A DNA stretch of 64,000 bases, taken from the NCBI GenBank assembly GCA_965207185.1, contig OZ242271.1, positions 3,197,086-3,261,085 on the forward strand, written 5' to 3'. The notes under the pieces were generated by a model. It was not told the origin of the DNA, searched no databases, and worked only from the letters and a program-made list of their open reading frames with translations. The position numbers and the translations under genes were made by a program. Source of the DNA: Chloroflexota bacterium. Its GTDB lineage: Bacteria > Chloroflexota > UBA11872. Positions 57,533 through 63,964 of this stretch are shown here, one piece after another; the stretch's first letter is position 1; every line of letters begins with the position of its first letter.

Positions 57533-58945
57533 CTAACCGCGGATCCCCACGCCCGGCGGGGCGGCCGTGGCCACACCTGCCGCGGGGCATTCGCCGCACC
57601 ACTTTTCCCGGCACCAGCGGCGGTATATCCGCAGCAGCCCTTGCTGCGCCAGCGCCGATCCCAGCCCGCGTCGTTCCAGCCGCAGCGTGTCGGCCATGTA
57701 GCGCGTGTGACGGTTCCAGCCAACCGATCCCAGGCCGGCCAACACCGTGGCGGCCGCGTCGACCAGTTCGGGCCGCCGCGACCAGCCCCCCAGCGCCGCC
57801 GCGAACGGCAGCACCGCGTTCACCAGCACCTCCAGGCTCCGCCCGCGCCCGATCAGCGCCGGCAGCGGCCGCGCCGCCCGCCGCCCCACGTCCAGGCGCC
57901 GCGCCCAGAAGTCCTCCGGACCTACTCGTACTTGGAACCACTCGACCAGGTCGCGACCGCGCCCTTCGTCGTTGGCGTTCAGCACCTGCCCCGCCAGCCG
58001 CTCCGCCAGCCGACGCCGCGCCATTGGCGCCATGCTCAACAGCCTGGCCGCCCCCGCCAGTCGCCGCGCCGGCCGGTTGTGGGGGCGCACCGCCGCCAGC
58101 GTCCAGTCCTCGACCGCCGGCGCCGCGCGCGGCGAGCCGCTGGCCCAGGCCTCCTCGAGCGCGTGCTCATGCGAGTGCTCCGCTTGCTGCCCTCGCTGGC
58201 TCGGCAGCAACCCCGCCGCTCCAAGCAGCTCAGCCTCCACCCGGATCCGCCGCGCCGTCAGCGACGGCCCCGCCAGCGAACTCAGCAGCTCGATCGGCGC
58301 CGCCTCGGCCACCGCCTCGAATTGCTCGGTGTTGGCGCTATATCCCAGCGCCCGCATAATCGCCCGATACAGCGCCTGGTCCGCACCCAGCGCCTCGATG
58401 TCGCTCTCCAGCACCGCCGCCCGCTCCCTGTGCCGCCGCAGACCCTCCGCCTCCACCGTCGCGCGCACGTCCTCCCGGGCCGCCGGCCGCGATCCTGCGA
58501 TCCAGCACGGCCACCCGGCCGGCTTCGCACGCTGACCTCGACGCTCCCCGCGATTGGCCAGCGCCTGCGTCGCCACAATGCACGGCGGCCGGGTCGAGTC
58601 GCTGCGGGCCGCCGCCGTCCAGACCAGGTGCAACAAGTCACCGGCGTAGCGCGCGTCCGCGTCGTGCCCATGCGCCCCCCAGGACGCCTCGTGCAGGTGG
58701 ACTTCCACGTGGATCCGGCGCGCCGGACCGCCCTCAATGCTTACGATCGCGTCTTGCAGGTCCGGACCTGCCAGGCCCGTCCGTCGGCCGGGGTATACCA
58801 CCTCGATCGATCGCCCCAGTGAATCGCGCATGGGACCGGCACGCGAGGCAACCTCCAGCCACAATTGCACCAGTTCGGCTTCGGACCCCGGCCGCGGCGG
58901 GTCGCCGACCCCGATTGCGTCGCGCGTCAACGACAACTCCGTCAC
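57533..58945 (-). CDS. conserved hypothetical protein (possibly DUF2851-like; C-terminal CxxC...CGEC cluster)
   Basis: 470-aa ORF with host-like codon usage and ...HVEVHLHEASWGAHGHD... and ...WCREKWCGECPA... motifs. Function unknown. Confidence 0.55.
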   Translation of the reverse strand: MTELSLTRDAIGVGDPPRPGSEAELVQLWLEVASRAGPMRDSLGRSIEVVYPGRRTGLAGPDLQDAIVSIEGGPARRIHVEVHLHEASWGAHGHDADARYAGDLLHLVWTAAARSDSTRPPCIVATQALANRGERRGQRAKPAGWPCWIAGSRPAAREDVRATVEAEGLRRHRERAAVLESDIEALGADQALYRAIMRALGYSANTEQFEAVAEAAPIELLSSLAGPSLTARRIRVEAELLGAAGLLPSQRGQQAEHSHEHALEEAWASGSPRAAPAVEDWTLAAVRPHNRPARRLAGAARLLSMAPMARRRLAERLAGQVLNANDEGRGRDLVEWFQVRVGPEDFWARRLDVGRRAARPLPALIGRGRSLEVLVNAVLPFAAALGGWSRRPELVDAAATVLAGLGSVGWNRHTRYMADTLRLERRGLGSALAQQGLLRIYRRWCREKWCGECPAAGVATAAPPGVGIRG

Positions 58946-59060
58946 CGCGCACTAAAACGCTCACAGCTTAGTGTGCCCCAATTGTGTCCCGCCCTCCCGC
59001 TATTGACGCGCACCGCATCCTTCCGCACACTCGCCTCGAACTCTTGGGCTACGAGTACGC

Positions 59061-59141
59061 ATGACCCACGGTCACTCGCCAGCTTGCGGCGTCTATTTTG
59101 CGTTTCCAGGGCCGGCGCAGCCGGATCGTGACTCTATGTAG
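59061..59141 (+). CDS. candidate 26-aa leader peptide (MTHGHSPACGVYFAFPGPAQPDRDSM) with Tyr-Phe-Ala-Phe run
   Basis: Short ORF (ATG 59061, TAG 59139-59141) ending 22 nt before an intrinsic terminator in the aroF 5' region. It contains 3 aromatic codons (TAT TTT ... TTT). Confidence 0.3.
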   Translation: MTHGHSPACGVYFAFPGPAQPDRDSM

Positions 59142-59164
59142 TCCAACGATTCGCGGACGCCGGC

Positions 59165-59195
59165 AGCAGAGGTGAAAGCCTCTGCTTTTTTCTTT
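59165..59195 (+). terminator. intrinsic terminator/attenuator hairpin roughly 45 nt upstream of the aroF start
   Basis: Stem agcagagg/cctctgct (8 bp), loop tgaaag, followed by TTTTTTCTTT. aroF has RBS AGGAG at 59225-59229 and ATG at 59239. Confidence 0.6.
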
Positions 59196-59238
59196 CTCCG
59201 AGAACCCACCGCCACCGCCCACATCAGGAGCCCGCCCG

Positions 59239-60270
59239 ATGATCATCGTCATGAAAAATACCGCCGGCCAGGCGGCCCTGGATGCGGTCGAAGCCCGCGT
59301 CCAGGCCGAGGGTCTGGAAACCCGCGTCCTGCCCGGCGAGCACAAGACCGTCATCGCCGTCATCGGCACCCGTCCGCCCGAGCTGCTCCAACAGCTTGAG
59401 CGCATGCCCCACGTCGAGGCCACCATCCCGATCAGCGAACCCTTCAAGCTCGCCGCCCGTACCGACAGCCGCGAGCGCTCGGTCATCCAGGTCGGCGACA
59501 TGGAGATCGGCAACGGCGCCGTCACCATCATGGCCGGCCCCTGCACCGTCGAGAGCCCCGAGCAAATGGCCGCCACCGCCCAACACGTCGCCTCCGCCGG
59601 CGCCCAGCTGCTGCGCGGCGGCGCCTACAAGCCGCGCAGCTCCCCCTACAGCTTCCAGGGCATGGGCGTCCGCGGCCTTGAACTCCTGGCCGAGGCCCGC
59701 GAGGCCACCGGCCTCCCGGTCATCACCGAGGTCCTTGACCCACGTCAGGTCGAAGTCGTGGCCGAATACGCCGACGTCATGCAGATCGGCACCCGCAACG
59801 CCCAGAACTACCCGCTCTTGCGCGAAGTCGGCGGCTGCGGCCGCCCCGCCCTGCTCAAGCGCGGCATGGGCAACACTATCGACGAGTGGCTCATGTGCGC
59901 CGAGTACATCATGGCCGCCGGCAACCCCGACGTGATGCTCTGCGAGCGCGGCATCCGCACCTTCGAAACCTCCTCGCGCTTCACCCTCGACCTCAACGCC
60001 ATCCCCTTGCTGCGGCGCCGCACCCACCTGCCCATCGTCGTCGACCCCTCCCAGGGCACCGGCCACTGGTACATGGTCCAATCCATGGCCCTGGCCTCCG
60101 TCGCGGCCGGCGCCGACGGCATCATCGTCGAGGTCCATCCCTCGCCCGAGTCCGCCTTGATCGACGGCCAGCAGAGCCTCAGCTTCAGGCACTTCAGCGA
60201 GTTGATGGCCCAGCTCGAACCGATGGCCGCGGCCCTGGGGCGCCCGCTCGGCGCAGTGGTCGGCGCGTGA
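59239..60270 (+). CDS. aroF: 3-deoxy-7-phosphoheptulonate (DAHP) synthase, type I-beta with N-terminal ACT/ferredoxin-like regulatory domain
   Basis: Roughly 75-aa N-terminal regulatory domain, then a KDO8PS/DAH7PS core ...GPCTVES..Q...A.....G...LRGGA.KPR.SPYSFQG......G..L..A......PV.TEV.D...... Confidence 0.85.
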
Positions 60271-62431: not shown

Positions 62432-62779
62432 TCGGACCCAACCTGGCAGCCCGTCGTCTCCTCCCTTTCCCTGTGCAATCCTTGCAACGCGCCACTCGCC
62501 CTCGAAGCCACGGCGGCTCTTACTTCCTCTCCTGGCGGATGGCAACTGTGCGCGGCGTCTATCTCTTCCAGGAGACGCCGCTCTTCACCCTCTCCAAGGG
62601 GAGAGGCAGATTCGGGCGTCTTCGGCCGAAATCGGTGAGGGGTCTTCCGGGCACCAATCCCCGGGTTGCGAAAACGTCTCCAGTCGGCTGGAATTCACTG
62701 GAGAGACTTCTCCGTTTGCCAGTGAATCTGCCCCACTACCGGCTGGACGCCGGCCCTACCGAAACTTCACCCTGACCCC

Positions 62780-63964
62780 ATGGCCAACCTCCGCTACCTG
62801 ACCGCCGGCGAATCCCACGGCCCCGGCCTCACCGTCATCGTCGAAGGCCTGCCCCTCGGCGTCCCCCTCGGCGTCCAGGACATCAACCCCGACCTTTCGC
62901 GACGCCAGGGCGGTTACGGCCGCGGCGGCCGCATGAAAATCGAGCGCGACCAGGCCGTCATCCGCAGCGGCATCCGCCTCGGTGAAACCCTCGGCAGCCC
63001 CATCACCCTCCTCATCGAGAATCGCGACTGGGCCAACTGGGGCGAGAAAATGGCCATCGAGGCCCGGCCCGACGACGTCCCCCCCGTCACCAAGCCCCGC
63101 CCCGGCCACGCCGACCTCGCCGGCATGATCAAATACGGCACCGGCGACCTGCGCAACATCCTCGAACGCTCCAGCGCCCGCGAAACCACCGCCCGCGTCG
63201 CCGTCGGCGCCGTCGCCCGCAAATTCCTCGCCGAACTCGGCATCCGCATCCGCAGCCGCACCGCCCGCATCGGGCCCATATTTGACGAACCCGGCCTCGA
63301 CCACGCCCGCCCCGAAAACTGGCCCTGGGACGACGTCGAAGCCTCCCCCGTCCGCGCCGTCACCCCCGAGCGCGCCGACCGGATGATCGCCGAAATCGAC
63401 GCCGCCCGCGTTGAAGGCTCCACCCTCGGCGGCGTCTTCGAAGTCGTCGCCTGGGGCGCCCCCGTCGGCCTTGGCAGCCACGTCCAGTGGGACCGCAAGC
63501 TCGACGCCCGCCTCACCCAGGCCATCGTCAGCATCAACGCCGTCAAGGGCGCCGAAATCGGCCCTGCCTTCGCCAACGCCGCCGCCCGCGGCCACGACGT
63601 GCACGACGAAATCGCCATCGACCCCGACCGCGGCTGGGCCCGCCTTTCCAACCGCGCCGGCGGCTTCGAGGGCGGCATGACCAACGGCCAGCCCATCGTC
63701 GTCCGCGGCGCCCTCAAGCCCATCTCCACCATGCGCCGCCCCCTCCGCACCGTCGACGTCGCCACCCTCCAACCCACCACCGCCCACTTCGAACGCTCCG
63801 ACGTCTGCGTCGTCCCCGCCGCCGGCGTCATCGGCGAAGCCATGACCGCCCTCGTCCTGGCCGACGCCATCCTCGACAAATTCGGCGGCGACAGCCTCCC
63901 CGAAACCCGCGACAACCTGGAACGCTTCCGCCAGGGCTACGCCATACCCCCCGAATCCGAATGA
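62780..63964 (+). CDS. aroC: chorismate synthase
   Basis: MANLRYLTAGESHGPGLTVIVEGLP.G......I...L.RRQ.GYGRGGRMKIE.D...I.SG.R.G.T.G.PI.L.I.N.D. Confidence 0.92.
   Translation: MANLRYLTAGESHGPGLTVIVEGLPLGVPLGVQDINPDLSRRQGGYGRGGRMKIERDQAVIRSGIRLGETLGSPITLLIENRDWANWGEKMAIEARPDDVPPVTKPRPGHADLAGMIKYGTGDLRNILERSSARETTARVAVGAVARKFLAELGIRIRSRTARIGPIFDEPGLDHARPENWPWDDVEASPVRAVTPERADRMIAEIDAARVEGSTLGGVFEVVAWGAPVGLGSHVQWDRKLDARLTQAIVSINAVKGAEIGPAFANAAARGHDVHDEIAIDPDRGWARLSNRAGGFEGGMTNGQPIVVRGALKPISTMRRPLRTVDVATLQPTTAHFERSDVCVVPAAGVIGEAMTALVLADAILDKFGGDSLPETRDNLERFRQGYAIPPESE

Follow-up and report, generated by a model that had tools for sequence, protein, structure and literature searches.

Leader-peptide attenuation is textbook knowledge for Proteobacteria and has been documented in Actinobacteria. 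In its classical form, represented by pheL-pheA and trpL-trpE, codons for the end product are followed by a stop codon placed against helix 2:3, an intrinsic terminator precedes the first structural gene, and segment 3 is shared by the antiterminator and the terminator; helix 2:3 folds on starvation and is prevented by completed translation. In Escherichia coli pyrBI, a ribosome close to RNA polymerase blocks the terminator hairpin with no alternative helix, the leader open reading frame (ORF) spans the terminator, and the signal is pausing of the polymerase at low UTP. For aroF, PMC11802643, citing Neshat et al. 2014, describes a leader peptide in Corynebacterium glutamicum, AroR, which contains Phe-Tyr-Phe and was shown experimentally to respond to Phe limitation. 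The uORFC-13-1 motif of Acholeplasma, which is a prediction only, is a candidate upstream ORF (uORF) with Phe codons beside a terminator before aroF (PMC8632094). In the open literature that we searched, no case of leader-peptide attenuation has been described in Chloroflexota. Here, we describe an element upstream of the DAHP synthase gene aroF of a Chloroflexota bacterium, in a stretch of 64,000 nucleotides (nt) that we call the window (contig OZ242271.1, positions 3,197,086 to 3,261,085 of the forward strand). The element is very probably a leader-peptide, that is, ribosome-mediated, transcription attenuator, and it is a conserved, well-delimited example from uncultured Chloroflexota of such control over the common aromatic pathway. 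It is composed of the following features.

59061-59141, plus strand: leader ORF of 26 codons encoding MTHGHSPACGVYFAFPGPAQPDRDSM, with an ATG start and a TAG stop, read from the sequence
59094-59105, plus strand: putative regulatory codon cluster TAT TTT GCG TTT (Tyr-Phe-Ala-Phe), with Tyr at 59094-96 and Phe at 59097-99 and 59103-05
59111-59164, plus strand: hairpin H2, with a base stem of GCCGGCG (59111-17) and CGCCGGC (59158-64) and an irregular upper stem
59165-59195, plus strand: intrinsic terminator, with stem 59165-73 / 59178-86, loop GAAA and U tract 59187-95 (T5-C-T3)

Most likely, this element uses the same sensor and target as known attenuators, and what is new is that an overlapping antiterminator is missing and that two spacings are fixed instead, one of +8 between the codons and H2 and one of 0-3 nt between H2 and the terminator. 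C. glutamicum aroR-aroF, as described in PMC11802643, and the Chloroflexota element have in common a short leader ORF, an operon that begins with aroF, the same amino acids and, as proposed here, stalling that raises transcription. They differ in phylum and in DAHP synthase context, and no sequence similarity was detectable; aroR-aroF is described there as ordinary attenuation, whereas the Chloroflexota leader lacks an overlapping antiterminator. With uORFC-13-1 the element shares an aromatic uORF directly before a terminator and an extra conserved base-paired element of unexplained role (PMC8632094). That motif is confined to Acholeplasma, is A+T-rich and is not in Rfam, and the resemblance, judged by comparing text descriptions, is one of architecture. 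Like pheL-pheA and trpL-trpE, the element has end-product codons, a stop codon placed against a helix and, ahead of the structural genes, an intrinsic terminator, and H2 occupies the place of helix 2:3 in the classical model. In contrast to those leaders, in which segment 3 belongs to both structures, the 3′ arm of H2 is adjacent to the terminator (0-3 nt) and shares no base with it, and there was no match to the Rfam amino-acid leader families. The nearest known precedent for read-through by a steric mechanism is pyrBI; here, however, the ORF ends 23 nt before the terminator, and the ribosome could act only via a folded H2, with 54 nt looped out and the tether between ribosome and terminator made shorter.

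Conservation of the leader ORF, hairpin and terminator

The leader ORF, its aromatic codons, H2, the terminator and the fixed spacing are all conserved in 16 distinct homologous leaders found upstream of aroF orthologues in Chloroflexota metagenomes. A scan of species-representative genomes with the AroF protein gave L002 and L003 (L001 was left out, as it has no upstream DNA), a scan of metagenome contigs gave L081, L082 and L083, and look-ups of exact AroF homologues gave loci L161-L180; the matching genome records are Chloroflexota metagenome-assembled genomes. Thirteen distinct leaders, at an AroF identity of 68-98%, could be aligned with the window; the alignment takes in the promoter, aromatic codons, the GCCGGC segment, the matching later segment and the terminator. 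Distant leaders have the same layout and largely different sequence, namely L167/L168 and L169 at an AroF identity of 58%, and L171-L173, L004 and L016 at 54-55%. A covariance model built from the close clade recovered all of the distant leaders at full length, with E values of 1e-4 to 6e-3, and the covariance model of the family gave no further match in the 64-kb window.

The 26-codon ORF and its Tyr-Phe-Ala-Phe run were found exactly where a preliminary description of this DNA had placed them. The check proposed there, whether relatives retain the small ORF with its aromatic codons, turned out in its favour, since both are kept in the 13 close leaders and in three distant groups with substitutions of a coding type. 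In the window, the aromatic residues are written with the rarer synonymous codons (in six neighbouring genes, TTT accounts for 8 of 43 Phe and TAT for 12 of 40 Tyr), and the probability that at least three aromatic residues fall by chance within four codons of a 26-codon ORF is about 0.5%, given the local protein composition. Homologous ORFs of 14-33 codons, with start, aromatic cluster and stop all kept, are present in 16 of 16 distinct relatives, the start being an in-frame ATG, GTG or TTG. Within the close clade, third positions change (TTT/TTC, TAT/TAC, GCG/GCA), Ala is also replaced by Ser (TCG), and L003, L176 and L083 carry one extra in-frame codon (ACC, CCC or CGT) between Tyr and Phe. 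Trp stands in place of Phe in L083 and is added in L179, and the clusters seen in relatives include Y(x)FAF, YRWAF and YFAFAW. The residues on either side of the aromatic block vary freely, and the stop codon, which is TAG, TGA or TAA, is at the same place, always 11 codons past the last Phe. The leader peptides of the distant groups read MAATAWYSWYYFRSRHDGAP, MSINLFGYYFYSTA and (V)LHSAFAYYYLFIEPEGPA, and their aromatic runs, WYSWYYF, FGYYFY and YYYLF, are written with unrelated nucleotides. Codon-wise changes in which an aromatic residue is replaced by another are the signature of a translated sensor ORF. The pattern is the one expected if the identity and position of the aromatic codons were the only selected property of the leader peptide, and RNA structure alone would hardly explain it.

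H2 lies between these codons and the terminator. In the window it has a folding energy of -29.6 kcal/mol (z = -3.66), and none of 200 dinucleotide shuffles was as stable. Its 5′ arm is made up of the final 10 codons of the leader ORF, and its apical loop (59134-59139) includes the Met codon as well as the first nucleotide of the stop. Across the family H2 is 52-72 nt long. Compensatory changes preserve the base stem: in L082, L162 and L166 its innermost pair is A-U in place of G-C, and the stem as a whole is CGGCAUGACGGGG:CCCCGUCAUGCCG in L167 and L169 and GCCGGAGGGU:ACCCUCCGGC in the L171 group; the interior has a different sequence in every lineage and always folds. In an alignment of these related sequences that was fitted to the structure, and therefore favours it, 95.5% of cells were paired, two-sided changes were seen in 7 of 18 pairs, and the covariation score was 0.251, whereas shuffled partners scored 0.097 +/- 0.013 and slid partners no more than 0.059. 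H2 begins 4-6 nt past the last aromatic codon in all groups, with its base at +8 from the first base of that codon in 11 of 16 leaders by automatic scoring, and every member has a spacer of 0-3 nt between H2 and the terminator, the window one of 0 nt. Every member also ends its leader ORF within H2: the window clade has the stop codon at the apex, and the distant groups have it in the 5′ arm or shortly beyond. Directly ahead of the stop, the final sense codon is invariably AUG or GUG (AUGUAG, GUGUAG, AUGUGA, AUGUAA), which leaves UGU invariant at the H2 apex (59136-59141 in the window), reading RUG-URR. The model proposed below does not account for this invariance; RUG-URR may serve as a motif of the loop, as a favoured context for termination or as a start-stop element.

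The terminator is as strong as the preliminary description had claimed and lies in the same place, with corrections of detail. Its stem, given there as 8 bp and GC-rich, consists of nine pairs, namely five G-C, one U.G and otherwise A-U; the T run is T5-C-T3 and not T6CT3; and the distance from the leader stop codon to the stem measures 23 nt, where 22 had been given. The hairpin alone has an energy of -14.8 kcal/mol. Under a stricter criterion, only four strong sites of a hairpin plus a T run were found on both strands of the 64-kb window, and no second copy of the terminator motif was seen in it. The stem AGCAGAGG/CCUCUGCU is the same in the window, L002, L003, L081-L083, L161-L169 and L174-L180. 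Its core, GCAGAGG/CCTCTGC, is invariant in the close clade, L167 and L169, and is GCAGAAAG/CTTTCTGC in the L171 group; the top pair covaries, and covariation of the stem is found only in the group at 54% AroF identity (AGCAGAAAG/CUUUCUGCU). Purines predominate in the 5′ arm, which is similar to a Shine-Dalgarno (SD) sequence, with GAGG in general and AAGGAG in L167 and L169. That the core stays invariant at 58-98% AroF identity with a loop of 3 to 6 nt is a second feature for which the proposed model does not account. A reading of the invariant inverted repeat as a DNA operator was rejected, since the loop varies in length and the stem covaries.

Proposed mechanism

According to the model that we propose, expression of the common aromatic pathway would be set by charged tRNA-Tyr and tRNA-Phe, and in some relatives by tRNA-Trp. 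Transcription would start at about 59038, and a ribosome would translate the leader ORF while RNA polymerase heads for 59165-59195. When Tyr or Phe is scarce, the ribosome would be expected to stall at 59094-59105. Established work on the ribosomal helicase has shown that the ribosome unwinds mRNA to about +8. Since the base of H2 lies at +8 past the last Phe, where this unwinding ends, H2 would stay folded on a stall and would stand against the terminator stem with a spacer of 0 nt. When amino acids are plentiful, the ribosome would open the 5′ arm of H2, reach the stop codon at the apex and hold the arms apart; the 3′ arm would then be single-stranded, the terminator would fold freely, and transcription would end at about 59190-59195.

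The states of H2 were examined by folding with ribosome masks. With the mask on Tyr or on the first Phe, the pairing probability of the H2 base stem was about 1.0. With the ribosome on the last Phe, the H2 base was predicted to be intact for a footprint reaching +7 and opened for one reaching +11. Once the ribosome is at the stop codon, the 5′ arm of H2 is covered in L167, L169, L171, L004 and L016 (pairing probability 0.00). In the window clade the ribosome is positioned at the apex and covers about 59124-59151, with one arm on each side, and on steric grounds the arms should be unable to pair around it. In the L171 group, a 17-pair local hairpin can form between the Tyr-Leu-Phe codons with the H2 5′ arm and the sequence after the stop; in the predicted fold it is a clear 1:2 alternative, which would leave the 3′ arm of H2 single-stranded in untranslated RNA. 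We consider it probable that H2 is a ribosome-sensitive switch.

As to the way in which H2 might antagonise the terminator, regulation needs a folded H2 to lower termination, and the two hairpins share no base, so that a steric explanation is the simplest. The 5′ end of the terminator stem would have to enter the RNA exit channel beside the hybrid, and a rigid, G+C-rich H2 without a spacer, with a ribosome at its base, could keep the lowest terminator pairs from closing, so that the polymerase reads through. Folding of H2 would loop out about 54 nt, so that a ribosome stalled about 90 nt upstream would in effect touch the terminating polymerase, with a path of only about 40 nt left to the active site of the enzyme at the U tract. 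A coupling that is purely steric is put forward tentatively, as one possibility that we would not bet on. Rather doubtful, too, and a little more so, is the specific proposal that H2 serves as a non-overlapping antiterminator, in which its abutment (0-3 nt) and the ribosome lodged at +8 keep the lowest terminator pairs open. If the geometry of codon, hairpin and terminator does prevent termination, it would represent a new design principle for terminator control, and the non-overlapping H2 would be, to our knowledge, an undescribed steric coupling of ribosome position to intrinsic termination.

Antiterminator search and rival explanations

On balance we favour a ribosome-mediated attenuator of the aroF operon with H2 as the switch and without a conventional overlapping antiterminator, and a number of results weigh against it. 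The relatives are all metagenomic. The leader has a weak SD sequence, with only GAG at -10 to -8 from the ATG, and a 26-codon open frame by itself carries little weight at 65% G+C. A footprint reaching +11 at the last Phe opens the H2 base, so that the outcome depends on which codon stalls the ribosome, and the folding program still pairs the H2 arms of the window clade with a ribosome at the stop codon. No antiterminator sharing bases with the terminator was found in the leader: when the terminator 5′ arm was tested for duplexes with the part of the leader left free by a ribosome stalled at the last aromatic codon, the best duplexes in 13 sequences of the window clade and the L171 group had -4.4 to -7.9 kcal/mol, no better than shuffles. 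Pairing of the 5′ arm anywhere upstream adds -0.6 to -6.8 kcal/mol, compared with -12 to -17.6 kcal/mol for the terminator hairpin, and equilibrium folding gave the terminator at every ribosome position. Finally, we know of no demonstrated case in which a merely abutting helix prevents termination, and no precedent for a terminator block by mere abutment was found in the literature searched.

Position-specific sequestration of the terminator 5′ arm was not seen when the full leader, or a leader cut before the 3′ arm of the terminator, was folded with a 29-nt ribosome mask at each codon. This equilibrium test was equally flat for four control leaders and is thus not diagnostic alone, and the direct duplex test was used. 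In the window the duplex had -4.4 kcal/mol, compared with -7.0 +/- 1.8 kcal/mol for shuffles. In five other aroF leader-peptide families (L008, L091, L044, L122 and L094), the same test gave duplexes of 9-12 pairs and -10.7 to -21.0 kcal/mol, 1.5-3.3 standard deviations better than shuffles. Within the family the only candidate, a modest one, was GCUCCUU:AAGGAGC in L167, at -11.7 kcal/mol and about 1 standard deviation better than shuffles. Other pairings were considered and rejected. Pairing of the terminator 5′ arm with the 5′ untranslated region or early ORF reaches -14.0 kcal/mol in the window and -18.9 kcal/mol in L002, is absent in L082, L003 and L083, and is not conserved. For UUUUGC (59096-59101), six pairs with GCAGAG are possible in the window and in L002; the UUC found in most members produces a C-A mismatch. 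At most four pairs, not conserved, were found for the H2 3′ arm with the terminator arm, for a shifted register of the palindromic GCCGGC, for a pseudoknot of the H2 apex (AUGUAG) with the terminator 3′ arm, and for the terminator 3′ arm with the aroF SD sequence; these, like the UUUUGC pairing, were checked by hand. The preliminary description had proposed looking for mutually exclusive antiterminator and terminator structures. No such pair was found, and instead a conserved hairpin abuts the terminator without overlap. Its attenuator thus stands as regards the leader peptide, given the 16 relatives, and falls as regards the "classic attenuation geometry", there being no overlapping antiterminator.

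One rival explanation is a classical attenuator whose base-paired antiterminator is weak or cryptic: GCGUUU.C (59100-59107) would pair with AGAGGY (59168-59173) and extend H2 downwards, which would put H2 in competition with the terminator for bases. RNAalifold proposes this extension once the 3′ arm of the terminator is left out, and GCGUUU shows almost no variation, nor does the purine-rich arm AGCAGAGG. For UCUGUU, from the Tyr-Leu-Phe codons of the L171 group, six pairs with AGCAGA are possible, and the L167 duplex joins the stop-codon region to the terminator arm. However, GCGUUU and UCUGUU lie in the footprint of the stalled ribosome and would be unavailable in the read-through state; the energy gained, quoted above, comes with a G/G mismatch and an internal loop and compares poorly with that of the terminator; the UUC of most members breaks the alternative UUUUGC:GCAGAG of the window; and the L167 duplex, so close to shuffles, is absent from the close clade. 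We regard a cryptic antiterminator as improbable. The lack of a base-paired antiterminator is also what would be seen if a protein or other trans-acting factor read the hairpin AGCAGAGG-loop-CCUCUGCU or the junction of H2 and terminator, the ORF being secondary or unrelated. Such factor-dependent attenuation would fit a terminator stem that is invariant across aroF lineages diverged to 58-70% protein identity, with a free loop, as binding sites read by their sequence show conservation without covariation. It would leave unexplained, though, the in-frame aromatic codons with start and stop across groups unrelated in sequence, as well as the fixed +8 spacing between codon and H2. The L171 stem and the top pair covary and the loop runs from 3 to 6 nt, as would be expected of an RNA hairpin more than of a dimer operator, and no regulator gene is linked to aroF, the neighbours being different from relative to relative. 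This explanation is quite unlikely, somewhat more so than a cryptic antiterminator.

It may also be asked whether the site is regulated at all. The terminator could be an insulator, or a stop that is partial and constitutive, downstream of a strong promoter, and the ORF could be a by-product of a structured, G+C-rich leader or act on translation or stability only. Open frames are frequent in DNA of 65% G+C, and several overlap at this locus; the SD sequence of the leader is weak, and folding predicts termination in all states. Against this stand the codon-wise substitutions with aromatic residues replaced by aromatic ones, the recurrence of the same design in three groups unrelated in sequence, and the similar aromatic uORFs ahead of aroF in many phyla, and we give the absence of regulation little credence. 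Direct sensing of tRNA or a metabolite by a T-box, a riboswitch or another known cis-regulatory RNA is hardly credible. A long structured leader with a terminator before an amino-acid biosynthesis operon would suit it, and T-boxes do control aroF elsewhere (L078). However, Rfam 15 gave no match in the whole window at the gathering score or in 58800-59400 even at E = 10, which bears out the earlier statement that no T-box is present, and among 20 related loci at the gathering score it gave only one T-box and one tRNA and no match for this leader. Within H2 the sequence is not conserved, and this speaks against a ligand pocket; the codons are the only conserved single-stranded elements. These comparisons leave the ribosome-mediated attenuator with H2 as its switch as the reading that we prefer.

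Genes, promoter and wider occurrence

The element lies in the 293-nt interval 58946-59238 between two divergent genes. Since the upstream gene is divergent, the terminator at 59165-59195 cannot be its 3′ end. The features that frame the element are as follows.

57533-58945, minus strand: DUF2851 gene, upstream neighbour, divergent from aroF
59003-59031, plus strand: predicted sigma-70-type promoter, with TTGACG (59003-08), a 17-nt spacer and CACACT (59026-31)
59226-59230, plus strand: SD sequence of aroF, AGGAG, 31 nt past the U tract, with the ATG at 59239
59239-60270, plus strand: aroF, DAHP synthase, matching Pfam PF00793 (DAHP_synth_1) and PF18152

The preliminary description had placed the ribosome-binding site of aroF about 30 nt past the terminator, in agreement with the distance found here. 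It had also given the gene order as aroF-aroA-aroE, and Pfam indeed identified DAHP synthase, EPSP synthase (aroA) and shikimate dehydrogenase (aroE) in this order. Its "ACT-fused" DAHP synthase did not hold, as the N-terminal domain of AroF is the ferredoxin-like FXD domain (PF18152) and no Pfam match to ACT was obtained. The ORF at 62780-63964, as read off its sequence, appears to encode chorismate synthase (aroC), and aroF is most likely the first gene of a controlled aroF-aroA-aroE(-aroC) cluster. Between aroE and the chorismate synthase ORF there is a gap of 348 nt without a convincing ORF (62432-62779), in which neither a terminator-like site nor an Rfam match was seen; elsewhere in the aro cluster the genes lie close together, and stop codons overlap start codons. 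In the relatives the neighbours of aroF vary (DUF2851, HAD hydrolase and others), and no regulator gene is linked.

The predicted promoter would place the start of transcription near 59037-59039 and give a leader of about 200 nt. It falls under the threshold of a consensus scan, and its -10 element matches the consensus at 3 of 6 positions. GTTGACG and CGCACACTC stand out as conserved blocks of the promoter region among the six leaders that were aligned first; the -10 element is CAGACT, GAGACT or CAAACT in three further leaders, and the distant leaders L167 and L169 have TTGACA-17-TATACT. In L166 and L177 the leader ORFs are longer (33 and 32 codons), and the ATG lies 9 nt past the -10 hexamer (CAGACT or GAGACT); their leader peptides are probably translated from leaderless or nearly leaderless mRNA.

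Aromatic-rich small ORFs were also seen 150-330 nt upstream of FXD-type aroF genes in Anaerolineae, Desulfomonilaceae, Clostridia, Planctomycetota and others. The loci are L008, L091, L044, L094, L116, L127, L030, L111/L122, L097, L144, L056 and L150, and further L014/L019/L084, L155/L156/L159, L096/L074, L146, L148, L071, L072 and L077. Their peptides include, for example, MKLGKHAEMGIFYFGYYYWFFG..., ...YFWWYYF... and ...FYFYGFGWSYYYGFGYF.... A terminator follows most of these uORFs, five have a clear overlapping antiterminator, and none of those searched was found in Rfam. Their wide occurrence before FXD-type aroF makes them useful for annotation. Upstream of an Acholeplasmatales aroF, a T-box was detected at L078:2725-2955 (105.7 bits); together with the leader peptides, this means that different lineages control aroF by at least two unrelated RNA-based mechanisms.

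The family model also gave weak matches (E 0.04-0.14) at L015:1571-1679, L010:1394-1510 and L025:2059-2162. These correspond to the aromatic leader ORFs MKHSLESAQAYMYTFYFSRPTGVGRFALPGG, MNSQIWFAYYYFYFSCPPAGRLLRVARG and MLTKPVYFYFYFFSS..., each followed by a strong terminator, and L015 and the window leader have in common UUUGCGUUGCC and UGUAGUC. The three leader ORFs are situated 0.5-1.6 kb upstream of aroF and therefore presumably precede another gene of the same operon. Elsewhere in the window, on the minus strand at 26220-26095, a TTGACG promoter-like hexamer is followed after about 90 nt by a hairpin, CCCAACCGGC-GACA-GCCGGTTGGG, with T5. This hairpin has no Rfam match and is the best terminator-like site of the window besides that of aroF, and the element may be a small RNA or another short leader.

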